Shown here piece after piece: positions 3,095 through 48,832 of a stretch of 64,000 nt of DNA (within the stretch, counting starts at the first letter, position 1; every line of letters starts with the position of its first letter). Below the pieces are notes generated by a model. That model made no database searches. It was given only the letters and a program-made list of their open reading frames with translations, and was not told the DNA's origin. Position numbers and translations under genes: made by a program. Source of the stretch: an uncultured Chloroflexia bacterium (GTDB lineage: Bacteria > Chloroflexota > Chloroflexia > Thermomicrobiales > UBA6265); the NCBI GenBank assembly GCA_963750275.1, contig CAVVQC010000003.1:145034-209033 (forward strand). The letters are read 5' to 3'.

Positions 3095-3165
3095 ACGTTC
3101 CCCCGGCTGAAGCCCGGGGCTCACAAAGCAAAGATCCTCCGGACCTGAGGAGGCGACACCACGAT

Positions 3166-31607: not shown

Positions 31608-31844
31608 TTGACCCACCCTCCGTCGTGGTGGGACCTGTGCCCGGCCACGCAACGCCCGACAACGGACTCGCCACATAACTCAAATCGTAGTTGATTCACG
31701 CAGGTTCACCACACTACACGTAGCGGGAATCGTGCGAAAAGCTCCCGTGATCCCTCTCCGATGGCGTGCCCGCCAATCGGGCACCCGATCACGAGCGCAC
31801 CTGGCTTCGACCAGATCCATTGCGGCCTACGAAGTGAGCATTCC

Positions 31845-32975
31845 ATGGCGAAAGAAAAGATCAAGATCGTCGTTTGGGACAGCATCGGCAACACGGTGTT
31901 GGGGGTGCGTCCCTGGTCGAGCTGGGAACCGAGGCAGGTCGAGCATTTCCTGCGCGAGGACCCGGCGGGACCGGAGCGCGCCCAGAGCTTCGATGAGCTC
32001 TTCGCTGACTACGATGTCGAGCTGATCTGGTTCAACAGTGCCGATGAAGCCTACGGCGCGTTCGGCACACTCGGCGAGGATTACGCGGCGAACCTTCGAC
32101 TGACCAAAGATGTCGACGAGATCGCGGCCGAGGTCGAGGATGCCGACTACCTCGTCATCCACAAGCAAAACTTTCCCGCCGAAGCGCTACTAAAAGCGAA
32201 GAACCTCAAACTGGTCCAGCATCTGGGACAGGACTATCGCGGCATGCCGGTGGACGCCGCGCGCGAGCTGGGCATACCAGCCGCGGCGACTCCCCTCATC
32301 AACTACATCACCGTGGCCGAGCATGTCTGGGCGTTCGTACTGAACTGGCTCAAACGACTGCCTGCCATCCGCGAGCACATGCGCACCCGGCAATACGCCG
32401 ACTCCTGGGGGATGTTTCCCGGCGTGCAATACGCCGGTGACGTCACGCTCGGTCTGCTCGGTATGGGCGAGATCGCCCGGCCGATCGCGAAATACGCGCA
32501 GGCGTTCGACATGCCAGTCATCTACTGGGATATCCAACGCTTCCCCGAGCTGGAGGAGAAGTTCGATCTGCGCTATGTCGAATGGGACGAGATCTTCGCG
32601 CAGTCCGACATCCTGACCGTGCAACTGGCGCTCAACGAGCAAACCCAGGGGATCATCGGCTCGCGCGAAATCGGGTTGATGAAACCAACCTCGCTCTTCA
32701 TCAATACCGCGCGCGGCAAACTGGTCGATCAGCCGGCCCTGACCGATGCGGTCGCGAATAACCGTATCGGCGGAGTGGCACTCGACGTTTTCTACGACGA
32801 GCCGCTACCGGTGGACGATCCACTGCTCGACCTGCACGATCTTCCCGGCGACCGCGTTACCCTCACCCCGCACGATGCCTGGCAAAGTCCGTGGACCTGG
32901 GTGCGCGATTCGCAAGAGATCTGGTTCAACGTATTGCGATCGCTTCGTGGCGAACCATTGAAGTTTCTCGTGTAG
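31845..32975 (+). CDS. Divergent D-2-hydroxyacid dehydrogenase family protein
   Basis: 'LGLLGMGEIA', 'FINTARG', 'LDVFYDEP', 'LTPHDAW'; atypical N-terminus. Confidence 0.85.
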   Translation: MAKEKIKIVVWDSIGNTVLGVRPWSSWEPRQVEHFLREDPAGPERAQSFDELFADYDVELIWFNSADEAYGAFGTLGEDYAANLRLTKDVDEIAAEVEDADYLVIHKQNFPAEALLKAKNLKLVQHLGQDYRGMPVDAARELGIPAAATPLINYITVAEHVWAFVLNWLKRLPAIREHMRTRQYADSWGMFPGVQYAGDVTLGLLGMGEIARPIAKYAQAFDMPVIYWDIQRFPELEEKFDLRYVEWDEIFAQSDILTVQLALNEQTQGIIGSREIGLMKPTSLFINTARGKLVDQPALTDAVANNRIGGVALDVFYDEPLPVDDPLLDLHDLPGDRVTLTPHDAWQSPWTWVRDSQEIWFNVLRSLRGEPLKFLV

Positions 32976-33006
32976 CATCCCGGAGCCTGGCACACTCCCG
33001 GACGGT

Positions 33007-33150
33007 CGTAGTGGCGGGACCTGTGCCCGCCAGCGGCCGCAGGCCGCCATTGCGTTGCCCGGAACCCGGTTTCCGTTTCGGTTGCCGGGTGGTTGGGCGG
33101 CCCCGTTATCGGGCGTTGCCCGATTGGCGGGCACAGGTCCCGCCACTACG
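33007..33150. repeat. Family A CGTAG-REP inverted doublet
   Basis: 33007..33049 CGTAGTGGCGGGACCTGTGCCCGCCAGCGGCCGCAGGCCGCCA and a reverse copy of the first hairpin at 33125..33150; degenerate copy at 31621..31663. Confidence 0.88.
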
Positions 33151-33196
33151 GAAGCGGATGCCGCCAATACGATAGGGGATACGCCCCAGCCATAAG

Positions 33197-34295
33197 ATGA
33201 CGCCAAAGGAGCGATCGATGCCACCGATTCAGTTTGGATTTTGTCTGCCGATTTTCGCGGCACCGGGGCCGAACCTCTTCCGCACCCCGGGGTTCGCAGA
33301 AGTCGATGCGGCGGCATGCATGGCCATGGGGAAACGGGCCGATGAACTGGGATACGACTCGCTCTGGGTCGCCGATCACCTGATGCTTGGCAAAGATGAC
33401 GCCATCCTGGAAGGGTGGACCGTCATCTCGGCGCTTGCTGGCGCGACCAGCCAAGCCCGGCTGGGGATGATCCACCTGGCGGTCCTCTTCCGAAATCCCG
33501 CGCTGACCGCCAAAATGGTTTCCACCCTCGACCAGATCTCCGGCGGCCGCGTGATTCACTTCATGGACTGCGGGTTCAGCGGCCGGGAGTACCTCGCCTA
33601 CGGGCTCCCCTGGAACGATGAGATCGACGAGCGCGTGGCGATGCTCGCCGAAGCCACCGAGCTTATGCTCGAACTCTGGTCGTCCCACGAACCAGTCACC
33701 TTCAAAGGCGCGCACTATTCGACGCAGGAAGCAGCTGTGCAATCCCAAGCCGATCCAGCAGCCACATCCACCCATCTGGTTTGGGGAGGTCAATCCCAAC
33801 ACGCTGGATGCCTGCGCGACATACGGGCAGGGATGGAATACCACCCCCGTTTCGATCGCCGAGCTACGCCGCCGGCTTGGATTGCTGCGGGAAGCCTGCG
33901 ACCGTCAAAACCGTGATTTCGACGAGCTGGAGCTGAGTCTCGAAACGCAACTGCTGGTGGCGCCCGACCTCGAGGCAATCCGCACGCGCCTGCACGATCT
34001 GGCAACCCTGGCCGAAATCGCCGCTGATGATCAGCGCGGTCAGGTCAAGGGGTTCGTCAGCAGCTATGCCACGGACGACGACTTCCAGGAGTTCATCTCG
34101 GGTGCCAGCGATGCGATCCCCAGCCGACTCGCGGAAGACTGGATCATCGGCACCCCGGATCAGGTCGAGTCCCGCCTGCGGGAGTACATCGACGAAGGGA
34201 TCAGCCACTTCATGATCTGGTTCATGGACGCCCCGAACATGGCCGGCCTGGAACTGTTCGCAGAATCAGTCGCACCGCGTTTCGAACGCGCGTGA
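33197..34295 (+). CDS. LLM-class flavin/F420-dependent oxidoreductase; +1 frameshift near 33737
   Basis: 'SLWVADHL', 'LEGWT', 'RNPALTAKMVSTLDQISGGR', 'CNPKPIQQPHPPIW', 'GTPDQV'. Confidence 0.87.
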
Positions 34296-34343
34296 GACGC
34301 ACTTGGCAGAGCTGGACCGAGGCTGCCCTTCTCGACCTTGCCG

Positions 34344-34381
34344 CCCCCTGTCATTCTTCACTTCGTTCAGAATGACAGGGG
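34344..34381 (-). repeat. Single family B element embedded in a hairpin
   Basis: 34353..34377 is the exact reverse complement of TGTCATTCTGAACGAAGTGAAGAAT at 3166. Confidence 0.75.
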
Positions 34382-34414
34382 TGGGGTAGCGCACAGTCAA
34401 GGGAGGACGCAAAC

Positions 34415-35563
34415 ATGCAACCAGCGCAATTCGATCTCGTGATCCAGAACGGACGACTCATCGACCCAGGAGCCGGGATCGATGGCTACTTCGATGTCGC
34501 GTTTCAGAACGAAAAGGTGGCAGCAGTTGCACCGAAGATCGATCCAGGTGACGCACCGACGATCGATGCGCGCGACAAACTGGTGACGCCGGGATTGGTC
34601 GACGCGCATGTGCATGTCTACGAGGGCGTGTCGCACTATGGAATCCCGCCCGACCCGACCTGTCTGGCGCAGGGAGCAACCACGGTGCTGGATGCCGGAT
34701 CGGCAGGCGCGGACACGTTCAAGGGATTTCGTAAATACATTATCGAGGCGAGCGAAACCCGAATTCTGGCGATGCTCAACATCTCCTCCATGGGGATGCT
34801 GGCAGAGGAAGTCGGCGAGCTCGACGATATCAAATGGGCCAATATCCCCAAGGCGCTAGCCACCATCGAGGCGAATCGCGATGTCATCCTCGGCGTAAAG
34901 GTGCGCCTCACCCGCGAGCTGAATTGCAGCGAGGCATCCGGCATTCGACCCCTCTTCCTCGCGCGGGAGGCCGCTGACGCCGCCGGGCTCCCGTTGATGA
35001 TCCACCCGCAGGATTCCTGGGCAGATTCGATCGATCAGGTGCTGGCCGTGCTACGCGAAGACGACATCATGACCCACATGTATCACGGCATGCGACACGG
35101 AATCCTTGACGAAACCGGCCGCATTCAACCGGCGGTACAGGCGGCACGCGACCGTGGCGTGCGTTTCGATGTCGGGCATGGGCAAGGGTCGTTCAATTGG
35201 GATGTCTGCTCCCGGGCAATGGAGCAGGGTTTCCTGCCCGATACGATCTCGTCTGATCTGCACAGCCACAATGTGGAAGGCCCAGTCTTTGATCTGATCA
35301 CCACAGTCTCGAAATTTCTGTTGCTGGGGATGCCACTGCACGATGCATTGGAACGGGTGACCGTCGAACCAGCCAGGACCGTTGGCATGCCAGGGCGAAT
35401 CGGAACGCTGGCGGTCGGCGCGGAAGGCGATGCCGTGGTGCTCGATCAGCGCGAGGGACGATTCGATCTGATCGACTCGCACAACGTGGTGCGCCAGACA
35501 CCGATGAAACTGGTTCCGACCACGGTGGTCAAGGGCGGCCGTGTGGTGCGCACCGAAGCCTGA
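34415..35563 (+). CDS. Amidohydrolase superfamily (dihydroorotase-like/deacetylase) metallohydrolase
   Basis: 'PGLVDAHVH', 'GVKVRL', 'MIHP', 'THMYH', 'DVGHG', 'SSDLH'. Confidence 0.88.
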   Translation: MQPAQFDLVIQNGRLIDPGAGIDGYFDVAFQNEKVAAVAPKIDPGDAPTIDARDKLVTPGLVDAHVHVYEGVSHYGIPPDPTCLAQGATTVLDAGSAGADTFKGFRKYIIEASETRILAMLNISSMGMLAEEVGELDDIKWANIPKALATIEANRDVILGVKVRLTRELNCSEASGIRPLFLAREAADAAGLPLMIHPQDSWADSIDQVLAVLREDDIMTHMYHGMRHGILDETGRIQPAVQAARDRGVRFDVGHGQGSFNWDVCSRAMEQGFLPDTISSDLHSHNVEGPVFDLITTVSKFLLLGMPLHDALERVTVEPARTVGMPGRIGTLAVGAEGDAVVLDQREGRFDLIDSHNVVRQTPMKLVPTTVVKGGRVVRTEA

Positions 35564-35728
35564 ATTCAGACGATCTCGAGCCTCCAGGAGTTGTGCCCCT
35601 GAAGCTCCTCCGCCTGCGAAACCCGCGCCAGCCTATGGTTCCGAGCTCGCGCCAGCACCCTCGGTGAGCGAACGGGCAGTTCACGTCGTTTCTGGTGCGG
35701 CTGGGCGACCCGAGTAGACTTACCGATC

Positions 35729-36514
35729 ATGCGCATGTCGACCGATTTCGCTCGCTCACCGTGGCGAGCAGCAGGATATGACCCTCACGCAACTGGCTTC
35801 CGACAACGGTGGTCCTTCCAACGGCTCGATAACCCTGAGCTTATGGATGGCGATGGGTTCAGCGCCGATGAGCTGACGACCAACTTTCGCGACATTCAGC
35901 GCGTCAACCGCTGGTTTGGCGGTACGTCCGCCATTTTGGGGGCATTGCCCGGGCTGGTCCCTCCCGGCGCCACCACGGTCTCCCTGCTCGATCTCGCCAC
36001 TGGCGTGGCGGATATCCCGATCGCCGTCGAACGATGGTGTGAAGCCCGCGGCTACGATGTGAATATCACAGCGACAGACGTTTCTCCGCAGATTCTCGCC
36101 CTGGCCGGCGATCAGATCGCGGGCTCGACGCGCATCCACCTGCAGCAGGCCGATGCGCGCGCATTGCCATTCCCGAACAACGCGTTCGACGTAGTGACGT
36201 GTTCCCTCGCGCTACATCATTTTGGCCCCGACGACGCAGTGCTGGTGTTAAAGGAAATGGACCGGCTCTGCCGGACCGGCTTTATCGTCAACGATCTGCG
36301 CCGTGGTGCGGTCGGCTATGGCGCCACCTGGGTCGCCAGCAGGCTAACGACCCGCAACCGCCTGACCCGGAACGATGCGCCCCTCTCCGTCAGACGCGCC
36401 TACACCCCTGCGGAGTTGCGCGCTCTCCTGGATGAGGCCGGCGTAGAAAACGCCGAAGTCAAGACGTTGCCCTGGTTCCGTATGGTCGCGATCAAGCGTG
36501 TGGCCGGTGAGTAG
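35729..36514 (+). CDS. Class I SAM-dependent methyltransferase
   Basis: 'PELMD...NRWFGG', 'LLDLATG', 'DARALPF...FDVV', 'LHHF', 'NDL.R'. Confidence 0.88.
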   Translation: MRMSTDFARSPWRAAGYDPHATGFRQRWSFQRLDNPELMDGDGFSADELTTNFRDIQRVNRWFGGTSAILGALPGLVPPGATTVSLLDLATGVADIPIAVERWCEARGYDVNITATDVSPQILALAGDQIAGSTRIHLQQADARALPFPNNAFDVVTCSLALHHFGPDDAVLVLKEMDRLCRTGFIVNDLRRGAVGYGATWVASRLTTRNRLTRNDAPLSVRRAYTPAELRALLDEAGVENAEVKTLPWFRMVAIKRVAGE

Positions 36515-37743
36515 GTCTCTGCCGCCAACGTCAACTGGGCAAACCGATGCAGAGGTCATCGTCGTCGGTGGCGGCCCGGCCGGGAGTACCACCGCGCTCC
36601 TGCTGGCCCGCGCCGGACATTCGGTTCTGCTCTTGGACAAGGCCAGCTTCCCCAGGCATAAGGCGTGTTCCGAGTACGTCAATGCCGGTGGGGTAGCCGT
36701 GCTGGAAGAGCTGGGCCTGCTGGACGATGCGATGGCCGCTGGCGCTCATCGGCTGACCGAAATGCGCATCCATTCGCCAGCGGGCGGGCAGTTCACCGCC
36801 CGGTTCGATCGGGCATCCCCGGGCCGTCACGCGATCGGCCTCTCCCGCTACCGGCTGGACGCCATGCTGCTCGAGGCGGCTCGCGCGGCTGGGGTCACCG
36901 TGATGGAACGCACGCACGCACGAAACGTCTGGCTTCAGCCCGGACGCACCGGCCACGGTCGAGGTCTCAAGCGGTGGAACCTCCACCCAGCTGCGCGCTC
37001 CCCTGATCGTCGGTGCCGATGGACACCACTCCTGTGTCACGCGGTCGCTGGAACTCGACCAGACCCGACGCTGGCCACGACGAGTTGGCCTGGTGGCGCA
37101 TTATCAACACGTTTCCGGCAACAATCACGGAGGAGACATGTATGTCACCTCCGATGGTTACGCCGGGCTCGCCCCACTGGAAGACGGAATAACGAATATC
37201 GCGGTTGTCGTGCCTGAAGCGCGCGTGCAAGAGCGGTCGGGCTCGGTCGAAGACTTGTTCGATCAGCGGCTGGCGTCGATACCCGAGCTGAACCGTCGCC
37301 TCGATGGCGCAGTTCGGCTGGGAAATCTGCGTGGCGTCGGGCGACTCGGACACCGGGTCCGCCAGCCCACGGGTGATGGGTATCTGCTCGTCGGGGACGC
37401 GGCCGCCTTTCTCGATCCCTTTACCGGCGATGGTATTTACGAAGCCTTGCGAGGTGCGCAGTTGGCCGCTCCCGTAATTTCACGAGCGCTTGCTGCCGGA
37501 GACGTTTCCGAACGCGCCCTCGCGCTGTATCGCTGGGAGCGTCGCCGCGTTTTCACGATGAAACGACAGCTGAGCTGGGTGGTGCAGGGCTTCGTGCACA
37601 CCCCGGCAGCGATGAACTATGTCACCCGTCGTCTGGAGCGGCGGGAAACGGTCGGTTTAGAGTTGGCCGCGGCGCTGGGAAACTTCCGGCCCGCGCATAC
37701 CACGCTCACCCCGCACTTTCTGGCCCGACTCCTGCGGCCCTAA
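36507..37743 (+). CDS. FAD-dependent oxidoreductase, geranylgeranyl-reductase/aromatic hydroxylase-like; +1 frameshift near 36950
   Basis: 'VVGGGPAG', 'FPRHKACSE', 'LIVGADG' (shifted frame), 'LVGDAAAFLDPFTGDG'. Confidence 0.85.
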
Positions 37744-37757
37744 CATGGAACGGTTCT

Positions 37758-38222
37758 ATGCATTCAGAAGATGTCGTGTATATGCGCGGAAAACTCGATC
37801 AGATTGTGGAGCTGGCCATCGATATCGAACGATGGCCGGAGATCCTGCCCCACTACCGCTGGGTCACGCTGCTGGATGGCGGTGGCGATCACAAGGTCGT
37901 GGAAATGGCTGCCCGGCGGGGGCGAATCCCGGTCCGCTGGCGGGCCACACAGGATATCGATCGCAGCGGTCCCACACCGATCATCAGATTCAAACATGTC
38001 TGGGGTGTTACCAAAGGAATGGACGTCGACTGGACGTTTGTGCCAACAGAAGAGCAGGTAGAAGTGCGCATTCGTCACGATTTCAATCCAAACTGGCCAA
38101 TTGTCGGCGCTCCAATCAGCGAGCGAATCATTGGTCCGCAATTCATCTCACCCATCGCCAATCTCACGCTGACCACCATCAAGGGCATCGTCGAGGGGCG
38201 TGATCCCCGGTTCCCGCAATGA
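37758..38222 (+). CDS. SRPBCC/START-fold polyketide cyclase/dehydrase-like protein
   Basis: 'DIERWPEILPHY', 'GMDVDWTF', 'VRIRHDF'; 154 aa. Confidence 0.8.
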   Translation: MHSEDVVYMRGKLDQIVELAIDIERWPEILPHYRWVTLLDGGGDHKVVEMAARRGRIPVRWRATQDIDRSGPTPIIRFKHVWGVTKGMDVDWTFVPTEEQVEVRIRHDFNPNWPIVGAPISERIIGPQFISPIANLTLTTIKGIVEGRDPRFPQ

Positions 38223-39454
38223 CGCGACGGGTCGTCATCACTGGCATCGGCGCCATTACGCCGATTGGCAATAGCGCCGAGGGGCTTTGGTCCGGAGTGC
38301 AACGCGGCACCTCGGCTGTGCAACGCGTCACCCGCTTCGATCCATCGAACTTTCAGAGCCAGGTCGCCGCACACGCCGACTTCGAACCACTCGATTACCT
38401 GACCGAGAAGCGCGCCCGCCGGCTCGATCGCTATTCGCAACTGGCGCTGGCCGCTGCGCAACAGGCGATCGACGATGCCGGGATCGAGCGGAAAGACCTG
38501 GCAGAGATTGGGGCAGGCGCCTATATCGGTTCCGCCCTGGGTGGCGTCGCCTATGGCGAGGAGCAGCATGAAGCCTATGTCCGATCGGGCACGCAAGGCG
38601 TCAGCCCGCTGCTGGCCCTCTCGGTCTTTGGCGGCGCGGCCTCGTCGAACATCTCGATCGAGTTTTCTTTGAACGGACCATGCCTCGCCTATGGCAACTC
38701 CTGCGCGGCGGGATTGATCGCCATTGGAGAAGCAGCGCGCCTGATAGCTGATGGCCGCGCAACGGTCATGCTGGCCGGAGGTGCGGAAGCGCCACTGGCG
38801 CCCCTCACCTTCGGCGCGTTCTCGCTGATCCGGGTGCTCAGTACGCGCAACGACGATCCCGCGACTGCCAGCCGTCCCTTCGATCGCGATCGCGATGGAT
38901 TCGTGATGGCCGAAGGGAGCTGCATGCTCGTGCTGGAAGACGCCGAATATGCTGCGGCTCGGGGCGCTCGGGTCTATGCGCAGATCGATGGTTTTGCCAC
39001 CACCAACGATGCCCATCACATGACCGCCCCGCTCGCGGAAGGTACCTTCGCCGCTCGGGCGATCTCCCAGGCCCTGGCCGATGCCGGACTGCCAGCCGAA
39101 GAGATCGGGTATGTCAATGCCCATGGCTCATCGACCGTGCTGAACGATTCGACCGAGTGCAAAGCGATCCGTATCGCGCTTGGCCGGCATGCCGAGCGCG
39201 TCGCCGTCAGTGGCACCAAAGGGCTGCACGGTCATGCCCTCGGCGCGACCGGCGCCATGGAAACCGCGATCTGCGCCATGGCATTGCAACGGGGCATGCT
39301 GCCGGGTACTGCGAATCTGCAGCATCTCGATCCGGCCTGCGATCTCGACCTGATTCCCCCAGGTGGCCGCGTCGAACAGGTGGAACACCTCGTCACCAAT
39401 GCCTTCGGGTTCGGTGGGGTAAACGCCAGCGTCGTCATGAGCGCAACGAATTAG
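38219..39454 (+). CDS. Beta-ketoacyl-ACP synthase II-like ketosynthase (FabF/KS-alpha family)
   Basis: 'RRVVITGIG', Cys-His-His triad 'NSCAAG', 'NAHGSST', 'KGLHGHALGA'; 'RPFDRDRDGFV', 'NAFGFGG'. Confidence 0.92.
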   Translation: MTRRVVITGIGAITPIGNSAEGLWSGVQRGTSAVQRVTRFDPSNFQSQVAAHADFEPLDYLTEKRARRLDRYSQLALAAAQQAIDDAGIERKDLAEIGAGAYIGSALGGVAYGEEQHEAYVRSGTQGVSPLLALSVFGGAASSNISIEFSLNGPCLAYGNSCAAGLIAIGEAARLIADGRATVMLAGGAEAPLAPLTFGAFSLIRVLSTRNDDPATASRPFDRDRDGFVMAEGSCMLVLEDAEYAAARGARVYAQIDGFATTNDAHHMTAPLAEGTFAARAISQALADAGLPAEEIGYVNAHGSSTVLNDSTECKAIRIALGRHAERVAVSGTKGLHGHALGATGAMETAICAMALQRGMLPGTANLQHLDPACDLDLIPPGGRVEQVEHLVTNAFGFGGVNASVVMSATN

Positions 39455-39490
39455 AGCGGTGCTTGGGTTAAGTACCCGCTTCCCTGAGAC

Positions 39491-39543
39491 TGTCATCCTG
39501 ACCAACGGGAAGAGCCTGTCCTGAGCGTCGCCGAAGGAATCTC
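39491..39543 (+). repeat. Family B variant with an internal insert
   Basis: TGTCATCCTGA[ccaacgggaagagcctgtcctga]GCGTCGCCGAAGGAATCTC. Confidence 0.55.
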
Positions 39544-39704
39544 CTCGCCGCAGCGAGTGGTGGGGTCTACCATGCCTCCAACAGCGTGGGCGAATCATTT
39601 CGCAACCGCTCTAACGGTCCCGGATCGCATCTTCCATACTCAGCGTGCTCTGAATCGGAGCCCTTCACCAGCATGTCGTGACTTGAAGGAACGCCCCAGA
39701 TATG

Positions 39705-39718
39705 CGAACATTCGTTCG
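39705..39718. promoter_or_regulatory. Candidate LexA (Cheo/SOS) box GAAC-N4-GTTC
   Basis: CGAACATTCGTTCG directly upstream of RBS AAGGGAG and TTG 39737. Confidence 0.5.
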
Positions 39719-39736
39719 TACTAAGGGAGACGTTTC

Positions 39737-40753
39737 TTGCTCGAGCGCGCCAGCGGACAGTTCACGATCGACGGCCAGGTGGAAGACATTCTGGGCGGTA
39801 TCAGCGGGGCGGCACGCATCGCCCGCATCAGCCAAAGTTGCCAATTTACCGGGCAGCTCGAAGGCGAAAGCATGGCGGAATTCACTGCCGTGCTGCCGCG
39901 CGATGGCGACGGACGCTTCCACGGCTTCCAGCGGATCGCGGGAACGCTGGGCGAACGCGAAGGAACCTTTGTCGTGAGCGTGACCGGGGAGTACCGCAAG
40001 GGCGTGCCGCACGGTTCCTGGACCATCGTGCCGAAATCAGGCACCGGTGATTTCCTGCATATCCGGGGTAGCGGCGACTTTTCCCTGCCCGATGGGAAGC
40101 CCGGAAAATATCAGTTGGAGTTCGATGCGCGAAAACCGCGCGCGGCGAAGAACGACGTCGCGGCTGTTGCTGTCGCAGAGCCGAGCGTCAGTCCGGTCGA
40201 GACACCCGCTCCGGTCGAGATCCCGGTCGCGGAAGCCACCGACACCACCCCCGCTCCAGCAAAGCGCTCCCGCAAGCCACGCGCCAGCACCGCTGAGCCA
40301 CCCATGGAAGTCACCACCGAACCGCCCGCGAAACGCTCGCGTGCCCGTAAAGATGTGCCACCAGTTGCCGAGGTGCCTGCACCTACCAAGCCGGCAGCCA
40401 AACGAACGCGCAGGAAGCCCGCCGAGCCGGTCATGACTCCTGAACCCGTTATGGCCGAATCCGAGCCAAAACCAAAACGGTCGCGCAAGCCTGCAGCGGT
40501 TCAGCCCGCGATTATCGCGACTCCACCTGTTGCTGAATCCATTCCGGATCCGGTGCCTGCGCCGAAACCCAAGCGTTCTCGCAAGCCAGCGCCCGAGCAT
40601 CCCCCGGTCGAGCTCGCCCCAGTGGTAGCGGAGGTTGCGCCGGAACCAGCAGTGGTGAAACCACCCCGGCGCAAGAAGGACGCCCTTCCCGAACCGGTCG
40701 CGCTTCCCATCGCGGAACCCGCCCCTCGCCGTCGCCGCGCCAAGGCTGCCTGA
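39737..40753 (+). CDS. DUF3224-like N-terminal domain fused to a Pro/Ala/Lys/Arg-rich repetitive tail
   Basis: N-terminal 'FTGQLEG...GTLGEREGTFV...SWTIVPKSGTG...GSG' fits DUF3224; about 200-aa tail with 7 basic motifs such as PAKRSRKP. Confidence 0.75.
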   Translation: MLERASGQFTIDGQVEDILGGISGAARIARISQSCQFTGQLEGESMAEFTAVLPRDGDGRFHGFQRIAGTLGEREGTFVVSVTGEYRKGVPHGSWTIVPKSGTGDFLHIRGSGDFSLPDGKPGKYQLEFDARKPRAAKNDVAAVAVAEPSVSPVETPAPVEIPVAEATDTTPAPAKRSRKPRASTAEPPMEVTTEPPAKRSRARKDVPPVAEVPAPTKPAAKRTRRKPAEPVMTPEPVMAESEPKPKRSRKPAAVQPAIIATPPVAESIPDPVPAPKPKRSRKPAPEHPPVELAPVVAEVAPEPAVVKPPRRKKDALPEPVALPIAEPAPRRRRAKAA

Positions 40754-40779
40754 ATCCGGGTATCGGGATCCCCAACGGA

Positions 40780-41464
40780 CTACGGAGCCTCGAACCCGAT
40801 CTCCGTGTGGGTGCCGTCACAAAAGGGTTTGTTCTTCGACTGACCACAACGGCACAGCGTGACCCGGTTGCGTACTTCGTAGGTAAAACCGTCCTGGGTG
40901 GTGATGGGAATGCCGCCACGTACCCAGAGCGGACCGTTGGGTACGGTCGCGATCGACGCATCGAACCCCGGTTCGAGCGGCGCTCCACCCGGTTCGGCAA
41001 CCGCAAGACGGCCGGAGGGGCAGTTCGACACCATGGTGATCAACCGGTCGCGCACTTCCGGGTCGTTGCTCTGCCGAATCATCTTCCAGACATTGGTGAC
41101 GCGGTTGCCGCAGAACCCGGCATGCTCGCAAAGCGATTCATCGTCGGTCATAACGATCGCGTCCGCCTCGAACGAGCGGGCCCGCTCCGCCCGGGGAGCG
41201 CGGTCAGCCGTCAAGGCCGCATCCGGGAAGCCTTCGCTTGCGTGCGAGCCATCGCAAAACGGCTTGTTCTTCGAGTTTCCGCAACGGCAGAGGGCATAGC
41301 GCGCCTGCGGCTCAGATGATTCGACCTTTCCGCCCACCGGATCCCAGGCCAGCGGTTCGCCCGCGAGCACTCTCGACGGGATGCCGGGTGGTCATCGGCA
41401 CACCGCCTCGCACGATATAGGGCCCACCCTCAGTGATCGTGATGGAATAATCCTGCTCAGCCAT
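40780..41464 (-). CDS. CDGSH iron-sulfur protein (CDGSH - divergent Fe-S - CDGSH); +1 frameshift near 41361
   Basis: 'GGPYIVRG', 'LCRCGNSKNKPFCDGSH', 'LCEHAGFC...CPSG', 'LCRCGQSKNKPFCDGTH'; RBS GGGGAGG. Confidence 0.88.
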
Positions 41465-41720
41465 ACCGCGTTCCTCCCCAATCGATCGTTGGTTCGCGCA
41501 ACTATAGCGACCCTGCGAACACCGAGCTCCCGCGCTTCTGTCCAGCCTCGTCTCATTGCGAGCGCTCTTGCGCAGAGCACGATGCGAGATCAGCCTGGAG
41601 TGTCCAAATGCCAAACGATATTCCTCAGTTTGTCATGCAGATATGCTAGTATCGAAATCGAATACATTACCGCATTAACACCTTGGCTCTTTTGGTTCGC
41701 TATCGGAGGTTTCCAGTCTC

Positions 41721-42599
41721 ATGACGACCCGACGAACGTTCATTCCGGCTGCTGCCGGTGTCGTGGCCCTTGCCGGGCTCGGTCGATTCGGTTCGGCCGG
41801 CGCGCAAGACGCCACTCCGGGCGCATCGCCCGTTGCATCGGCGTCGCCGGTGGTCGCCAGCATCGACGAGCTCCCACTCCGGAATGCCGGTCAGCTCACG
41901 GTGCACGCCGACCAGCCGCTTTATCCGCCTTGGTACATCGACAACGACCCCAGCAACGGCCAGGGTTTCGAAAGCGCGCTGACCTACAAGATCGCCGAAC
42001 GCCTTGGGTTCACTGCCGACCAGGTCGAATGGGGCTACACCTCGTTCAATGCCTCGTTCGCTCCGGGCCCAAAGGATTTCGACTTCTACATCACTGAAGT
42101 CTCGATCACCGAGCCGCGCAAGGAAGCCGTCGACTTCAGCGATTCCTACTACAACTCTCCGCTCGTGCTCCTGGCCGTCGACGGGTCGCCGTTGTTCGAG
42201 GCCCAGACGCTGGAAGATCTGAAGCCATATACCTATGGCGCGCAGGTTGGCACCGTTTACTACACGTACATCTCTGAGGTGATTCAGCCGGACAAGGACC
42301 CGTTGATCTTCAACACCAATGCCGACTCGATCCAGGCGCTGGCCAACGGCCAGACCGACGGCGATCTTCAGTCGCTGCAAATCGGCCAGGCGATCGTCAC
42401 GTTCCAGTTCGACAACCTGGGTATCGTCGGCCTGCTCCCGGACGGTGCGACCGAAATGGGCATGGTCTTCGAAAAGGGGAGCGAGATGGTTCCCTACGTC
42501 AATATGGCACTCCAGTCACTCAAGGATGACGGCACGCTCGACGCACTGATCGCCGAGTGGCTGCCGATTCCGCAAGACCTGCGCGAGATCTCGCGCTAA
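41721..42599 (+). CDS. Polar amino-acid ABC substrate-binding protein (family 3), Tat signal
   Basis: 'TTRRTF...AGA|QD'; 'GQGFES', 'RKEAVDFSDSY', 'GAQVGT', 'DGTLDALIAEWL'. Confidence 0.9.
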   Translation: MTTRRTFIPAAAGVVALAGLGRFGSAGAQDATPGASPVASASPVVASIDELPLRNAGQLTVHADQPLYPPWYIDNDPSNGQGFESALTYKIAERLGFTADQVEWGYTSFNASFAPGPKDFDFYITEVSITEPRKEAVDFSDSYYNSPLVLLAVDGSPLFEAQTLEDLKPYTYGAQVGTVYYTYISEVIQPDKDPLIFNTNADSIQALANGQTDGDLQSLQIGQAIVTFQFDNLGIVGLLPDGATEMGMVFEKGSEMVPYVNMALQSLKDDGTLDALIAEWLPIPQDLREISR

Positions 42600-42622
42600 C
42601 GACGACTCAGATTGATAACGCG

Positions 42623-42655
42623 ACGGACCGGCCGGGTGAGCGGCCGGTCCGTTTC
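42623..42655 (+). terminator. Strong hairpin after the SBP gene
   Basis: ACGGACCGGCCG-ggtgag-CGGCCGGTCCGT followed by TT. Confidence 0.6.
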
Positions 42656-42671
42656 GTATTGAGGGCAGCAC

Positions 42672-43673
42672 ATGAGTGAGCTTCGTTCGGTTGTGCTCGA
42701 TGTCGATGTCGGTATCGACGATGCGTTGATGATGCTGTATCTCCTTTCCGAACCAGATGTGGAGATCGTCGCCATCGGCGCGACCCATGGCAACTGCACC
42801 GCAGCCGATTCGGCTCGCAATGCCCTACGCACTCTGGAAGCGGTTGGAGTAACCACCGTTCCGGTGGCACTCGGACTGGAAAGCCCGTTGGAAACCCCGC
42901 ATTCGGCTCCCCAGGTGCATGGCTACGACGGGCTGGGCGATATCGGGTTGCCCGATCCGATTGGACAAGTCACCGGGGAATCAGCCGTCGACCAACTTGT
43001 GCGACTCGGTGAGGAACGTCCGGGTGAGCTCGATCTGATCACGGTCGGGTCGTTGTCCAACCTCGCGGCGGCCCTGGAGCAGGACCCCGAAAGCCTGAAA
43101 CGCTATCGCTCGGTCACCTATCTCGGCACGCTCTCACAATACCCGGTGACACCACCCGTTCCCGACTACAACGACGCCAATGTCTACTTCGATCCGGAGG
43201 CGGCTACGCTGGTACTGTCTTCCGACACCCCGATGACCATTACCCCTATCGATCTCTCCCGCCGCGCGGCATTGGAAGACACTCATCTCGACGCGCTGAA
43301 GAACGGCACGACGCCGCAGGCGCGCTTTGCATGGACGATCCTTCCCTATTACTGCAACTTTTACCAGGAACGGTTGGGACGCTGGTCGGCCTCGATGCAC
43401 GACCCACTGGCGGCCGGTCTGGCGCTCGATCCGTCGCTCGCCATCGAAGTCGTCGAACGGCCGATCGTGGTCGAGCCATACAACGGGCGCCATCGCGCAG
43501 TTGGACGCATGGAATCTTCCCCCGACACCGAAGGCATTCCGCCTAAACGGATCATCCCCGAGGCCGACCTACCCCGTTTCCTCGACCGCTTCGTCGAGGT
43601 CCTGCTCGGCCCGGTCAACCCGATATACCAATCCAACGACCTCCCAGCGATCGCCAGACTCCCACCCCCCTAG
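42672..43673 (+). CDS. Inosine/uridine-preferring nucleoside hydrolase family
   Basis: 'LDVDVGIDDA' (DxDxxxDD), 'HGNC', 'VHGYDGLG', 'DANVYFDPEAA', 'MHDPLA'. Confidence 0.92.
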   Translation: MSELRSVVLDVDVGIDDALMMLYLLSEPDVEIVAIGATHGNCTAADSARNALRTLEAVGVTTVPVALGLESPLETPHSAPQVHGYDGLGDIGLPDPIGQVTGESAVDQLVRLGEERPGELDLITVGSLSNLAAALEQDPESLKRYRSVTYLGTLSQYPVTPPVPDYNDANVYFDPEAATLVLSSDTPMTITPIDLSRRAALEDTHLDALKNGTTPQARFAWTILPYYCNFYQERLGRWSASMHDPLAAGLALDPSLAIEVVERPIVVEPYNGRHRAVGRMESSPDTEGIPPKRIIPEADLPRFLDRFVEVLLGPVNPIYQSNDLPAIARLPPP

Positions 43674-43682
43674 GCTACCCGC

Positions 43683-43961
43683 CGTAGTGGCGGGACCTGT
43701 GCCCGCCAGCGGCCGCAGGCCGCCATGACCGTGCCCACCCCCCAAGTTTCCCCTCCGAAAACCTGGTTCCTCTCCGACGACCGCCCGGCTGCCCCCTAGA
43801 CATCATCAACCTACCCGTCGTAGTGGCGGGACCTGTGCCCGCCAGCGGCCGCAGGCCGCCATCGCGTCGCCCACAGCCAGGTCTCCAATCCGAAAACCTG
43901 GTCCCCACCAACTCCGTTATCGGGCTCCGCCCCATAGGCGACCACAGGGGCCGCCACTACG
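43683..43961. repeat. Family A REP cluster: two direct copies plus one inverted variant
   Basis: Copies at 43683..43725 and 43819..43861; reverse variant 43936..43961 (CGTAGTGGCGGCCCCTGTGGTCGCCT). Confidence 0.88.
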
Positions 43962-43990
43962 GCCGCGTTGCGGGTCCCGCGACCATTTCA

Positions 43991-46300
43991 TCAACAACTC
44001 GTAATCGGTGACGCCACAAACCGTGGTGGATCGAACGCCCGGATCGGCGGGACCGGTTCGGTCCATTTCTCGACCTCGACCCAGCCAAGCTGGCCCGTGC
44101 AGCCCTGCGCCAACTTCGACGTGCCGACATCCTCGGTCAGCACATTCGGATTGCCATGTACGCACAAGGCCCCAGGATCCGACCAGTCGATCGGGTCGTA
44201 CCAGGCGCCGGTAGAGAGCTGGACAACGCCGGGCAGGATCGCGTCGGTCACAACTGCGCCCGCGAGACAACGTCCCTTGTCACTGCTCAGCAAAACGATG
44301 TCACCGCTCTCGATTCCGCGAGCTGCCGCGTCTTGCGCATGAAGACGCACCGGCTCACGGCCCTGAATTTTGGTCGACTGGCTGTAGCCGCCCATATCGA
44401 GCTGGCTATGCAGCCGCGAGCTCGGGTTATTGGCCACCAGTCGCAAGGGATAGCTACCGGATTCCCGTAACGTCTCGATATCGAACCAGCTCGGATATTC
44501 CCGGCAATCGTCGTATCCAAAGCTGGCGATCGTTTCCGAACCGATTTCGATCTTGCCGCTCGGCGTTTGCAATGGCTGGGCATCAGGATCGTTGCGAAAC
44601 GCTCCCATGAGCGTCACGTTCGGGATGACCGGCACGCTGACCTGACCGTCATCCCAGAACTCGTCGAAGGAGGGCAGGTTCTCACCGGTTCCGGCTTCGA
44701 CCCGGTCGCTCCAATCGTCGTACATGCCACGGATCCATTCCAGCGGCGTCTTGTTCAGGTGATAGCGCTCGCCGAACCCGAGTCGGTCAGCCGCACCGGA
44801 GAAGATCGCGAAGTCGTCGCGCGCTTGGGCATACGGTTCGACTGCCTGGTGCATGGCGATGAGGGTCGGGTCGTTTCGGTTGCCACCGAGGTCATTGCGT
44901 TCCAGCGAGACGGTGGCAGGAAGGACGATATCGGCATGTCGTGCCATACCGGTCCAGTACGGCTCGTGCACCACGATCGTTTCCGGCCGTCCCATCGCGC
45001 GACGCAGGCGGTTCAGATCTTGATGGTGATGGAAAGGATTTCCACCGGACCAGTAGACCAGCCGAATATCGGGATACGTGAGCTGTTGGCCATCGTAATC
45101 GAACGATTCTCCCGGACCGAGCAGCATGTCCGCCACCCGGGCTACCGGAATGAACGACGTTACCGGATTTCTTCCTTGCGGCACCGAGGGGAGCTCGACC
45201 GCGGCCGGTGCCTGCCCGACTTCAGCCATCGAACCGTACCCGTGGCCGAATCCGCGACCCGGCAAGCCAATCTCACCCAGCATCGCGGCCAGCGTGATCC
45301 CCATCCAGACCGGTTGCTCGCCGTGTGGCGCGCGTTGCAAGGCCCACCCGATGGTAACCAGGGTTCGTTGGGCGGCCATCTCGCGCGCAAGCGTCACGAT
45401 CCGCTCGGCGGGAACTCCCGCGATCTCCCCGGCCCAGGTCGCTGACTTGGCGACGCCATCGGTGTCACCCAGCAGATAGCCCTCGAAGGTGTCGTACCCG
45501 GCCGTGAAGCGATCCAGGAACGTGCGGTCATGCAATCCCTCGGTCACCAGGGTATGCGCGATACCGAGCATGACCGCCACGTCCGATCCCGGCCGGGTGG
45601 GCACCCATTCCGCCTGCACCTCGGCCAGATCATCCTTGCAGGGACTGAAGGAGACGAAGCGCACCCCGTTGTCGGCCGCGGCGTGCAGGTTCGCGCGCAT
45701 CTCGTGCTTAGTCACGCCGCCCGGGCTGACGAAGGTGTTTTTGACCGGCAAGCCGCCGAACGAAACGACCAGCTCGGCTTCATCGATGATCTGCCGCCAG
45801 TTCGTGGCGAATTGAAAGGGATTGACGCCCGCACCAACTACACGCTGCAGGATCGGCCCCGATGCGCCCAGACTGTAGGAATTGACCGACGAGGTATATC
45901 CGCCGAGCAGATTCAGGAAGCGGCGCAAATGACTCTGCGCGTGATGGAATCGCCCCGCGCTCGCCCAGCCGTATGAGCCGCCGTAGATCGCCGAGGGACT
46001 ATGGGTCGTGACGACTCGGTCGAGCTCGAGCGCCAGCAGATCGAGCGCCTGGTCCCATTCCACCTCGACGAATGGATCGACACCCCGTTTGTCGCTCGCG
46101 CCTGGCCCATGCTCCAGCCACCCTTTGCGGATCGCGGGACGCCTGATCCGCGCCGGCGAGGTGGTCGAGCCGGGTATATTGCCGAGGAGCGGTGATGGGT
46201 CATGATCGAGCGGATGCGGCTCGGCCCGCACGATCTCGTTGTCGGAGACCTCCGCCAGATACGCGCCCCAGTGGGAGAGTTGGGAAATTCCGCTTGGCAT
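43991..46300 (-). CDS. Molybdo-bis(MGD) oxidoreductase, BisC/TorZ/DMSO-reductase family, cytoplasmic (no Tat signal)
   Basis: 'SHWG', 'PAIRKGWL', 'YGWASAG', Mo-ligand region 'NSYSLGA', 'GGNPFHHHQD', 'ADIVLPAT...ERND', 'RLHSQL'. Confidence 0.9.
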   Translation of the reverse strand: MPSGISQLSHWGAYLAEVSDNEIVRAEPHPLDHDPSPLLGNIPGSTTSPARIRRPAIRKGWLEHGPGASDKRGVDPFVEVEWDQALDLLALELDRVVTTHSPSAIYGGSYGWASAGRFHHAQSHLRRFLNLLGGYTSSVNSYSLGASGPILQRVVGAGVNPFQFATNWRQIIDEAELVVSFGGLPVKNTFVSPGGVTKHEMRANLHAAADNGVRFVSFSPCKDDLAEVQAEWVPTRPGSDVAVMLGIAHTLVTEGLHDRTFLDRFTAGYDTFEGYLLGDTDGVAKSATWAGEIAGVPAERIVTLAREMAAQRTLVTIGWALQRAPHGEQPVWMGITLAAMLGEIGLPGRGFGHGYGSMAEVGQAPAAVELPSVPQGRNPVTSFIPVARVADMLLGPGESFDYDGQQLTYPDIRLVYWSGGNPFHHHQDLNRLRRAMGRPETIVVHEPYWTGMARHADIVLPATVSLERNDLGGNRNDPTLIAMHQAVEPYAQARDDFAIFSGAADRLGFGERYHLNKTPLEWIRGMYDDWSDRVEAGTGENLPSFDEFWDDGQVSVPVIPNVTLMGAFRNDPDAQPLQTPSGKIEIGSETIASFGYDDCREYPSWFDIETLRESGSYPLRLVANNPSSRLHSQLDMGGYSQSTKIQGREPVRLHAQDAAARGIESGDIVLLSSDKGRCLAGAVVTDAILPGVVQLSTGAWYDPIDWSDPGALCVHGNPNVLTEDVGTSKLAQGCTGQLGWVEVEKWTEPVPPIRAFDPPRFVASPITSC

Positions 46301-46444
46301 GGTCGTGACTGGCTCCGTTCCATCGCGATACTCATGAGCTCGATTTGTCGAGAACTTTATACTCATCTCTCGTAAAAGCGGTCGAGCGTATCGTTCGGGT
46401 TGTCCCGAACGTCGATCCCGTGCAGCAGCCACCAGGAGGTCCCG

Positions 46445-47329
46445 ATGAGCGCGCCGCCCGCATCCGTTTCAGGAGAGCTGAGTCCCGAGCAAGTCCAGGT
46501 CTTGCTGACGCCGATACCTCCCTGGAAGCAAGCCGCCCTCTGGAAATCGATTGCCATTGCGCTGGTCAGCACCATCGTGCTGCTGGTGGTCATCGGCATC
46601 GTTCTGTCGAATTCGACGGGTTGGGAGTCCTTCCGGCGCGCCTTCCTGAGCTGGCCCAACTTCAAGGCCTCCTGGCCCCTGGTGGTCGACGGCTTCAAGC
46701 TCAACGTCCGGATCTTTCTGATCGCGGAACCCTTCATTCTGGCGATTGGCCTGTTGATCGCGCTCCTGCGCGTGACGCGCAGTCCGATCTTGTTCCCATT
46801 GCGGGCGCTGGCCGTCATCTATACCGACTTCTTCCGGGGCGCTCCGGCAATCCTCGTCATTCTCATGCTTGGTTTCGGTATGCCTGCACTGAGGCTGAGT
46901 GCGGTCCCCAACAACCCGATCTTCTGGGGCACAGTCGCCTGTATCCTCACGTCGTCCGCCTATACCGCCGAAACCTTTCGAGCCGGTATCGACTCCGTGC
47001 ATCCCAGCCAGCGCGCCGCGGCTCGTTCGCTCGGCTTCTCGAATGTGCAAACCCTTCGCATGGTCGTCCTGCCGCAAGCGATCCGCCGGCAGATTCCGCC
47101 GTTGCTCAGTGGATTCGTGGCCTTGCAGAAAGAGACTGCCCTGGTCTCGGTCATCGGCCCCCTGGAAGCCACCCGGCAGGCGCAGATCTACTCGGGGATG
47201 TATTTCAATTTCACCAGCTATCTCGCCGCGGCGGTGCTCTTCATCGCCGTCACTGTGCCATTGGCTCGCTTCACAGACTATCTGGTGAAACGTGACGCAC
47301 AGCGTCGTTCGAGCGGAGGTGCGTATTGA
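46445..47329 (+). CDS. Polar amino-acid ABC permease (HisM/GlnP-like)
   Basis: 'YTDFFRGAP', 'SAYTAETFRAG', 'QRAAARSLG', 'LPQAIRR..P', 'KETAL'; RBS AGGAGGT. Confidence 0.92.
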   Translation: MSAPPASVSGELSPEQVQVLLTPIPPWKQAALWKSIAIALVSTIVLLVVIGIVLSNSTGWESFRRAFLSWPNFKASWPLVVDGFKLNVRIFLIAEPFILAIGLLIALLRVTRSPILFPLRALAVIYTDFFRGAPAILVILMLGFGMPALRLSAVPNNPIFWGTVACILTSSAYTAETFRAGIDSVHPSQRAAARSLGFSNVQTLRMVVLPQAIRRQIPPLLSGFVALQKETALVSVIGPLEATRQAQIYSGMYFNFTSYLAAAVLFIAVTVPLARFTDYLVKRDAQRRSSGGAY

Positions 47330-48165
47330 GCGCGTCATCCTTGCTCCGTATCGAGCATGTCTACAAAGCGTACGACGATCATCTCGTGCTGCAAAACGTC
47401 GACCTGGCGGTCGATGCCCATGAGGTCGTCTGCCTGATCGGTCGCTCCGGTTGTGGCAAATCGACCCTGCTGCGCTGCGTCAATCGGCTGGAGGAGATTC
47501 AGGCGGGCCGCATTCTGCTCGATGATGTCGACATCACGGCATCGAATGCCGACCGCGACAAGATCCGCCAGCAGATCGGCATGGTCTTCCAGTCGTTCAA
47601 CCTCTTCCCGCACAAGACCGTGCTGGAAAACATCACCATGGCCCCCATCCATGTGCAGAAAGTGCCCAAACGGCAAGCCCGCGAGGAAGCGCACGAGCTC
47701 CTCGACCGCATTGGGCTTCCCGACCGCGCAAAGGAATATCCCGACCGGCTCTCGGGCGGTCAGCAGCAACGAGTGGCGATCGCCCGGGCGCTGGCACTCA
47801 AGCCGAAGCTGATCCTGCTGGACGAAGTCACCTCGTCACTCGACCCCGAAACCATCGGCGGGGTGATGGAGCTCATCCGCGAGTTGCGCGGCTCCGGCAT
47901 GACCATGATGATGGCCACCCACCAGATGGGTTTCGCGCGCGAAATCGCCGACCGGGTCGCCTTTCTCGACGCTGGCCGCATCGTCGAGATCGGCCCGCCC
48001 GAGCAGATCTTCGACCACCCGCGGGAGGATCGCACCCGGGAGTTCGTCAGCCACGCCCTCACGACCGCGGCATCGGAACTCGAAATCGTGGCGCCGGTAC
48101 CCACCTATCGCGACGGCCAGCATTGGACCAACCCCTTGCTCTCCGCCCTCGAAGAAGTAGAGTAA
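47326..48165 (+). CDS. Polar amino-acid ABC ATPase (GlnQ-like)
   Basis: Walker A 'GRSGCGKS', signature 'LSGGQQQRV', Walker B 'ILLDEVTSSLDPE'. Confidence 0.93.
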   Translation: MSASSLLRIEHVYKAYDDHLVLQNVDLAVDAHEVVCLIGRSGCGKSTLLRCVNRLEEIQAGRILLDDVDITASNADRDKIRQQIGMVFQSFNLFPHKTVLENITMAPIHVQKVPKRQAREEAHELLDRIGLPDRAKEYPDRLSGGQQQRVAIARALALKPKLILLDEVTSSLDPETIGGVMELIRELRGSGMTMMMATHQMGFAREIADRVAFLDAGRIVEIGPPEQIFDHPREDRTREFVSHALTTAASELEIVAPVPTYRDGQHWTNPLLSALEEVE

Positions 48166-48177
48166 CCACCCCCGCCC

Positions 48178-48480
48178 CGTAGTGGCGGGACCTGTGCCCG
48201 CCAGCGGCCCCCGGCCGCCATTACCTAGCCTTCACCCCCCGCTCCGATCGGCTACCTGCCCGCAGCACCCCCCCCCACGCCGTAGTGGCGGGACCTGTGC
48301 CCGCCAGCGGCCACAGGCCGCCATTGCGTAGCCTTCAACCCCGTCCCCGATCGGCAGCCTGGCCGCAGGCCACGTGTAGAACCCCCCACGCCGTAGTGGC
48401 GGGACCTGTGCCCGCCAGTGGCCGTAGGCCACCATTACGTAGCCCTCGACCCAGTCCCCGGCCAGCGGCCCGGTCGCGGA
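48178..48480 (+). repeat. Tandem triplication of a family A unit (period 103 and 111 bp)
   Basis: 43-bp cores at 48178, 48281 and 48392; the inter-core sequences resemble each other (tagccttca...cgatcggc...ccccacgc). Confidence 0.9.
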
Positions 48481-48580
48481 CATCTCGTTTATCGGACTTC
48501 ACCCAATCGCAGGACACAAGTCCCTGCCTTACCACGCTGCATGAGACGCTGGCACTCGCCCCGCAACCGCTCCCTACCCC

Positions 48581-48610
48581 TGTCATTCTGAGCGCAGCGA
48601 AGAATCTCTC
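48581..48610 (+). repeat. Family B element (single arm)
   Basis: TGTCATTCTGAGCGCAGCGAAGAATCTCTC. Confidence 0.8.
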
Positions 48611-48705
48611 TCGTCACCACGCATTCGGGCCCTGAACATTCACGACTTGGCATCACCTACATCGAAAGTGGGTTAGAGGAACGCCGCAATTGTGCCCACA
48701 CGCAC

Positions 48706-48758
48706 CGTAGTGGCGGGACCTGTGCCCGCCAGCGGCCGCAGGCCGCCACTACGTAGCC
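48706..48758 (+). repeat. Family A element with perfect 11-bp terminal inverted repeats
   Basis: CGTAGTGGCGG ... CCGCCACTACG (48706..48753) followed by TAGCC. Confidence 0.85.
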
Positions 48759-48832
48759 CAAAACCACGTTTCCCACCCGAACCATGGTGGTTCAGCGAAT
48801 CCGCTCTCGGGCCGCGCCCGACCAGCGGCCAC

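Follow-up and report, generated by a model that had tools for sequence, protein, structure and literature searches.

What are the short palindromic repeats that recur in the intergenic spacers of a 64,000-nucleotide stretch of DNA from an uncultured Chloroflexia bacterium, and what keeps their hairpins intact? The stretch, hereafter the window, spans positions 145,034-209,033 of contig C3 (CAVVQC010000003.1) of the genome G000, an assembly of 13 contigs with 4.32 Mb, 60% GC and 91% completeness. An initial annotation had described about ten separate copies of a two-hairpin element, here called family A, and had read them as repetitive extragenic palindromic (REP) sequences or as a bistable RNA. 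We find that family A is very probably a GTAG-tagged REP family organised as REP doublets forming hairpins (REPINs), the non-autonomous partners of a REP-associated tyrosine transposase (RAYT) named RAYT-A. The REP reading of the initial annotation is borne out by the GTAG head, the inverted doublets and a RAYT gene bracketed by the same REP. RAYT-associated REPs and REPINs are recognised by a 5' GTAG and a perfect palindrome in head-out inverted doublets (PMC3116915, PMC3733652).

The basic REP consists of CGTAG and a first hairpin, hp1 (TGGCGGG-ACCTGTG-CCCGCCA), with a perfect 7-bp stem and a 7-nt loop. This hairpin runs straight into a second perfect hairpin, hp2, followed by a 7-nt tail. 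The hp2 and the tail exist in two versions, GCGGCC-nnn-GGCCGC-CATTGCG in the A-half and ATCGSGC-nnn-GSCCGAT-AACGGAG in the B-half. The true unit is a head-out inverted doublet of 143 bp, in which CGTAG-hp1-hp2A is followed by about 50 variable nucleotides and then by hp2B'-hp1'-CTACG, with the consensus CGTAG-TGGCGGGACCTGTGCCCGCCA-GCGGCCGCAGGCCGC-CATTGCG-(~50 variable nt)-CTCCGTT-ATCGGGCTTCGCCCGAT-TGGCGGCCACAGGTGCCGCCA-CTACG. The different hp2 of the two halves and the fixed length of the spacer, whose sequence drifts, define this unit as a heterodimer. The G000 genome contains 29 doublets, 17 of which show a start-to-start offset of exactly 112 nt between a core on the plus strand and the following core on the minus strand. 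The CGTAG head is near-invariant in 81 A-halves (C in 80, G in 81, T in 79, A in 77 and G in 79) and is also carried by the B-halves. In both halves, the sequence of the tail complements that of the head (CAYTRCG to CGTAGTG in A, ACGG to CCGT in B). The second hairpin belongs to the element, with 34 of 40 hp2A motifs and 22 of 25 hp2B motifs linked to hp1. This linkage, together with the presence of only five CCGSSCC-n3-4-GGSSCGG motifs, excludes that hp2 is a pre-existing abundant target palindrome, as suggested for the GTAG-23 family of Thermomicrobium roseum.

The initial annotation had proposed to look for a RAYT flanked by this REP, and such a gene exists. In G002, a genome of the same genus, G002:C3:129,610-130,101 encodes an intact RAYT-A of 164 residues (P0002), whose HUH motif (PDHIHLL) and tyrosine (in AYILQNP) both align to those of the E. 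coli TnpA-REP structure 4ER8 (E 1.2e-5). Family A brackets the gene on both sides with the GTAG heads proximal, as a full doublet on the left and an A-half on the right, and the stop codon of the gene is the TAG of the right-hand CGTAG. The syntenic locus of G000, C7:270,330-270,760, which shares the same upstream gene and lies outside the window, holds a truncated RAYT pseudogene with the same family A bracketing. There, a weak RAYT match (C7:270,575-270,748) is found exactly between two outward-facing family A elements. The pseudogene, which is 54% identical, contains two in-frame TGA stops and reads ...CIMPDHFHL...SFWQRRFYDHGIRGDRDP*. An inverted copy of its own 5' flank stands in place of its 3' part, so that the region of the catalytic tyrosine is gone. 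A RAYT-A orthologue was detected only in G002 and, dead, in G000, and among the RAYT loci of 30 relatives none but that of G002 is bracketed by family A.

The insertion pattern is that of REPs. No flanking direct repeats of 3-9 nt were detected at any offset in 25 doublets, and the 5' flank is pyrimidine-rich, with T or C at position -1 in 47 of 50 ends. The initial annotation placed all copies between genes. This holds in the window; over the whole genome, 61 of the 84 cores lie cleanly between genes, and the remaining 23 touch only the outermost parts of maximal open reading frames (ORFs) or short spurious ORFs called by a crude gene caller. The 61 intergenic cores lie in 39 co-directional, 17 convergent and 5 divergent spacers, compared to a genome background of 56%, 22% and 22%, and a preference for co-directional and convergent spacers has been reported for REPs (PMC3733652). 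The orientation of the doublets relative to transcription is not significantly biased (11 versus 4). None of the hp1 and hp2 sites was called as an intrinsic terminator and no T-run follows the hairpins; the total of eight terminator sites is below the shuffle mean of 11.2. No Rfam 15 covariance model matched positions 31000-49500 of the window at E<=1.

By analogy with the TnpA-REP proteins of E. coli, S. maltophilia and Marinomonas (PMC3479197, PMC8266576), a single-copy HUH/Y1 RAYT would bind the folded hairpin on single-stranded DNA, read the GTAG and the loop, and cut and rejoin close by, at a dinucleotide that GTAG helps to select. Through its action, the non-autonomous doublets would spread slowly and without target duplications. 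The hp2 tail, being complementary to the head, might, more speculatively, help to present the cleavage site. Hp2 and its tail could possibly be a previously undescribed determinant for this RAYT clade, serving as a second recognition element or guiding the cleavage site. Since the cognate RAYT is dead in G000, the family A copies of this genome are probably immobile, a vertically inherited legacy.

In the window, the 21-nt core TGGCGGGACCTGTGCCCGCCA has nine matches with at most three mismatches, compared to 0.00 expected from 100 dinucleotide-preserving shuffles, and all the positions listed in the initial annotation hold the element. The copies are not all separate, as 33007 with 33125 and 43819 with 43936 are the two ends of single doublets. 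Likewise, the two-hairpin description fits the A-half but not the unit, which is the asymmetric inverted doublet, and the sites at 31621, 33125 and 43936, taken for reverse or degenerate copies, are B-halves with a different hp2 and tail. Halves and doublets were assigned from nhmmer model positions and bit scores, which gave two complete doublets, two doublets with decayed B-halves, three A-half singlets and one degenerate B-half, all listed on the plus strand. The degenerate B-half at 31621..31685 (model positions 76-143) is a singlet left over from a doublet, reading CGTCG-TGGTGGG-ACCTGTG-CCCGGCC with hp2B partly deleted; the orthologous spacer of the congener G002 contains a full doublet. 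At 33007..33150, a complete doublet of 143/144 bp runs from A to B (120.6 bits), with 26-nt arms that are 100% complementary. Its A-half covers 33007-33054 and its B-half 33104-33150 on the minus strand. An A-half with part of the centre and no B-half follows at 43683..43766 (model positions 1-83). The second complete doublet, at 43819..43961, also runs from A to B (106.4 bits), and its minus-strand B-half (43936-43961 region) has an hp1 of the C-G type with one G.T wobble and a T-T opposition at the foot of the stem.

A head-to-tail array of 103-nt units, spaced by 103 and 111 nt, begins at 48178. Its first unit is the A-half at 48178..48236 (hp2 loop CCC) and its second tandem unit the A-half at 48281..48365 (hp2 loop ACA). 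The doublet at 48392..48524 (model positions 1-134, 70.3 bits) combines a perfect A-half, with hp2 GTGGCC-GTA-GGCCAC, and a strongly decayed B-half. That at 48706..48832 (model positions 1-127, 87.9 bits) has a perfect A-half with the tail CACTACG and a decayed B-half that abuts the stop of a convergent gene. This tail gives an 11-bp perfect inverted repeat with the head (CGTAGTGGCGG/CCGCCACTACG), which the initial annotation had correctly recognised, along with the hp2 loops GCA, CCC, ACA and GTA and the compensatory GTGGCC/GGCCAC stem at 48392. Across the tandem A-half array, ORFs of 83-116 residues at 48232-48635 are artefacts of the GC-rich repeats, and automatic annotation may call them as genes. 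A second interspersed family, GTCATTCTGAGCGCAGCGAAGAAT, occupies 48572-48605 with an inverted partner at 34353-34386, and it also fills the spacer of the congener G001 that is orthologous to 32976-33218.

The selected structure was assessed on 42 distinct doublets (24 of G000, 18 of relatives). In the four local hairpins, 98.1% of the cells are paired, with double changes in six pairs (31 cells), and none of 500 shuffles scored as high; slid controls were far below the local-hairpin model. The covariation claimed earlier for both hairpins is therefore real, and it backs hp1 and hp2 as local hairpins. At the innermost position of hp1B, 28 doublets have C-G and 14 have G-C, and none is unpaired. 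The hp1 change noted earlier at 43936 is this common B-type swap from G-C to C-G, accompanied by one G.T wobble. One hp2B pair is G-C in 32 doublets and C-G in 10, the copies adjacent to the RAYT have GTCACGC/GCGTGAC, and in two doublets an hp2A pair is U-A instead of C-G. The hp1B and hp2B variants occur in all four combinations (22, 10, 6 and 4 doublets), so the changes must be recurrent or recombined. The compensatory changes represent few events inherited by many copies, which demonstrates constraint on the hairpins from a sample that is not large. Two larger structures were discarded. A long stem between the halves would have G-G or C-C mismatches at the swapped B-half pair in 28 of the 42 doublets. 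The central palindrome folds on itself with an energy of -7.2, the same as chimeras of different copies (-7.1) and near that of shuffles (-5.6).

Comparison with related genomes points to an old population with a particular pattern of conservation. Column identity reaches 95-98% for the heads and hp1, a value partly ascertained, as the copies were picked through hp1, which inflates its conservation; hp2 and the tails were not used in the selection and are about 84% identical in pairwise comparison, and the centres about 52%. Within G000, the closest pair of doublet centres is 92% identical and the median nearest neighbour 73%. For at least 21 of 42 G000 REP loci, both flanks (75-93% identity) are found at family-A-bearing loci of relatives, mostly of G002, which indicates that much of the family A population predates the species split. 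The orthologous doublets of G000 and G002 have identities of 0.84-0.96 at the ends and 0.56-0.75 in the centres. At four orthologous loci (window 33007-33150, C6:39,191, C6:293,880 and C6:370,957), the doublet is flipped relative to its flanks between the two genomes. The centres at C6:370,957 are 75% identical when both are read from A to B, so the element appears to have been inverted in place between its terminal inverted repeats. Copy number also differs at orthologous loci: several have two A-halves against one, and one has a singlet where its counterpart is empty. The spacer at 32976-33218 of the window is occupied by other repeat families in G001 and G004, and the 667-bp spacer at 48166-48832 is much shorter in G001, at about 130-150 bp, without family A. 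These differences in presence, number and orientation among congeners bear only indirectly on RAYT-dependent mobility.

The distribution of family A is uneven both between and within genomes. A search with a 25-mer, allowing at most two mismatches, gave 69 copies in G000, 59 in G002, 16 in G004, 12 in G011 and 11 in G003, whose assembly is 59% complete; all other genomes searched have 0-2 copies, and the 25-mer is missing from the Thermomicrobiales genomes of other families that were searched. Within the genus, the counts are thus patchy (69, 59, 16, 11, 0, 0 and 0), three genomes having no copy at this threshold. The exact 25-mer is confined to Thermomicrobiales or "Chloroflexia" metagenome-assembled genomes (MAGs), apart from one contig labelled as alphaproteobacterial. 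This contig (L023, CAWGLP010000009.1, from a MAG labelled Alphaproteobacteria) carries one family A copy with flanks 78-83% identical to the C7:305,146 locus of G000, and, judged by these flanks, it is probably a mis-binned Thermomicrobiales contig. The 84 cores of G000 are found on C6 (36), C7 (33, in its first 800 kb), C3 (9), C5 (4), C1 (1) and C11 (1). The density is about 9 cores per 100 kb for C6 and 4 for the first 800 kb of C7; the last 600 kb of C7 have none and the 922-kb C11 has one. Different replicons, or a large region rich in REPs, may underlie this unevenness.

Other repeat families and transposases of the same genome were also considered. REP-X (CGTAGYGNAGGGCCTCCGTGCCCTC), a third family of GTAG hairpins, is present in at least 24 copies with a similarly skewed distribution and brackets the RAYT P0001 at C7:225,160-225,739, outside the window. 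A REP-X variant pair is present in the window at about 3038-3100, and at four loci (C6:147697, 224985, 225184 and 227915) a family A doublet is preceded on its 5' side by REP-X, at a distance of about 5-17 nt. P0001 (C7:225,247-225,720) is the only intact RAYT of G000, with 81.4 bits on NF047646 (cut-off 80). It is unlikely to be the cognate enzyme of family A, given that it is 39% identical to RAYT-A (P0002) and that its bracketing REP-X hairpins have another loop. An IS200-type TnpA at C5:375,900-376,700 (NF033573, 77 bits) is unrelated, having its own inverted repeats GGCTAAAGCC... / GAAGTCCCGCTGGGACT.... Weak matches to Y1 transposases (23-35 bits) were also seen outside the window at C3:245,655-246,237 and C7:124,037-124,222, within open frames of 250-286 residues.

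Could family A be explained without a RAYT? Its 26-nt terminal inverted repeats, its length of about 143 bp and its interspersed copies are those of a conventional miniature inverted-repeat transposable element (MITE) derived from a DDE-type insertion sequence. This origin is nevertheless very improbable, as target-site duplications of 3 nt or more are lacking, the sole gene seen to lie between ends of family A encodes a Y1/HUH RAYT, and each terminal repeat is a hairpin in its own right, headed by GTAG. The B-half swap also preserves the local hairpin, yet mismatches the termini in the 28 doublets that carry it. The two exclusive folds put forward in the initial annotation would instead make the A-half a bistable RNA, switching between hp1+hp2 and one long hairpin formed by pairing of the 5' CGTAGTGGCGG with CCGCCAYTRCG. 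With RNA parameters, the long hairpin is indeed favoured in the isolated A-half (-32.7 versus -24.8/-25.8 kcal/mol), and tail positions 46 and 48 often change in ways that a wobble pair can accommodate. However, with DNA parameters the minimum-energy fold of the isolated A-half as single strand is hp1+hp2 (-15.9). Full doublets have a four-way junction as their minimum-energy fold, and all double substitutions fit hp1 or hp2. In the long stem, the GTGGCC/GGCCAC variants, present in three copies, create a C-A mismatch. The tail frequently fails to pair at two of its five pairs, positions 47 and 50 being unpaired in 20 and 25 copies out of 81, and the near-invariant CGTAG shows no covariation with the tail. 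In addition, the B-halves have no second CCGCCA, and no Rfam family matches. These comparisons weakly refute the proposed switch, and a bistable RNA is hardly credible.

The REPIN reading itself has several points against it. P0002 scores 74.7 bits on NF047646, just under the curated NCBIfam cut-off of 80, the 91%-complete G000 assembly contains no intact cognate RAYT, and G004 has 16 family A copies without a close RAYT-A. The divergence of the centres, about 52% identical pairwise and 92% in the closest pair, gives no sign of recent transposition. Nor does mobility alone explain why the ends are so strongly conserved at loci that are old and orthologous. Near-perfect ends at loci older than the species split, with the RAYT dead in G000, no close RAYT-A in G004, and centres and many partner halves decaying, could be accounted for by selection independent of the transposase. 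The two-hairpin ends would then be kept through host exaptation of the REP module or through homogenisation by a non-cognate RAYT, a reading that we consider rather unlikely. In the first case, beside or instead of mobility, the host would have taken over the hp1+hp2 ends as structures that stabilise or terminate 3' untranslated regions (UTRs) or as sites for nucleoid or topology proteins, as in the bacterial interspersed mosaic elements (BIMEs) of E. coli; a 3'-UTR or a DNA-structural element with the invariant ACCTGTG loop are candidate roles. Such a takeover, to which we give a rather low probability, would fit ends conserved at 83-98% against the far more variable centres of the same elements, and the same gradient between G000 and G002 orthologues. 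It would equally fit the perfect A-halves next to decayed B-halves in the window, the dead cognate RAYT, the location of the copies mainly downstream of genes and the spacer length that is fixed despite sequence drift. Part of this conservation is nonetheless inflated by the hp1-based ascertainment, which leaves hp2 and the tails unaffected. Moreover, the Rfam search, the terminator calls with the missing T-runs and the doublet orientations all gave negative results. Three same-genus genomes lack family A, and orthologous spacers hold other repeats or nothing, so any host function must be dispensable or generic.

The REPIN-RAYT reading also gains from the context of the clade. Within the same bacterial family, each of the other RAYT lineages is flanked on both sides by a GTAG hairpin of its own, in which the loop (A)CCTGTG/CCCTGT is kept and the stems differ. 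A constant GTAG and loop with co-varying stems is what would be predicted by the loop-dependent recognition described for perfect-palindrome REPs (PMC8266576). In G001, G006, G011 and G024, one or two more perfect hairpins of the type ATCGSGC-n3-4-GSCGAT-AAC follow. The extra hairpin is a trait of the clade and is not special to family A.

Family A shares with the REPIN-RAYT systems (Bertels & Rainey 2011, PMC3116915) and the REPtrons with TnpA-REP (Messing 2012, PMC3479197; Corneloup 2021, PMC8266576) an extragenic hairpin with a 5' GTAG, inverted doublets of fixed spacing, the absence of target-site duplications, a HUH/Y1 transposase in single copy with the same REPs on either side, and vertical inheritance with slow turnover. 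The perfect palindrome with a conserved loop is shared with the S. maltophilia and Marinomonas group. Contrary to these systems, family A resides in an uncultured Thermomicrobiales (Chloroflexota) lineage, each of its REPs adds a second perfect hairpin and a tail, its doublet is a heterodimer (hp2A versus hp2B) with a spacer that drifts freely at fixed length, and its cognate RAYT is a pseudogene in G000. The GTAG-tagged REP superfamily (Di Nocera et al. 2013, PMC3733652) includes GTAG-23 of Thermomicrobium roseum and Roseiflexus castenholzii, which was compared to family A by description and not by consensus sequence. Features common to this superfamily and family A are the GTAG tag, head-out ('HH') dimers with spacers of 20-100 bp, heterodimers and spacers with terminal stem-loops (as in CGTC-3 of A. 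tumefaciens, PMC3733652), clustering in blocks with an uneven genomic distribution (as in T. roseum, PMC3733652), and the favoured location in co-directional and convergent spacers. The literature (PMC3733652) already has GTAG REPs, heterodimers of the HH type, spacers with structure, clustering and, with T. roseum GTAG-23, an example from the Chloroflexi; the integrity of the ends is the one point beyond the standard REP model. The mosaic clusters of inverted and tandem REPs at gene 3' ends, here mixed with REP-X, also resemble the BIMEs of E. coli; the sequences are unrelated, and family A offers no evidence of binding motifs for IHF, gyrase or Pol I.

Taken together, these results extend REPIN-RAYT biology to uncultured soil Thermomicrobiales of the Chloroflexota. 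For annotation, family A explains several long repeat-filled intergenic spacers and spurious ORFs in the window. Across the clade, GTAG and the loop are invariant, the stems co-vary and a second hairpin is added, a pattern that provides testable recognition determinants for an unstudied RAYT group. Sister genomes with a live and a dead cognate RAYT, in which about half of the REP loci are common, offer a test bed for what conserves REPs, be it the transposase, the host or both.

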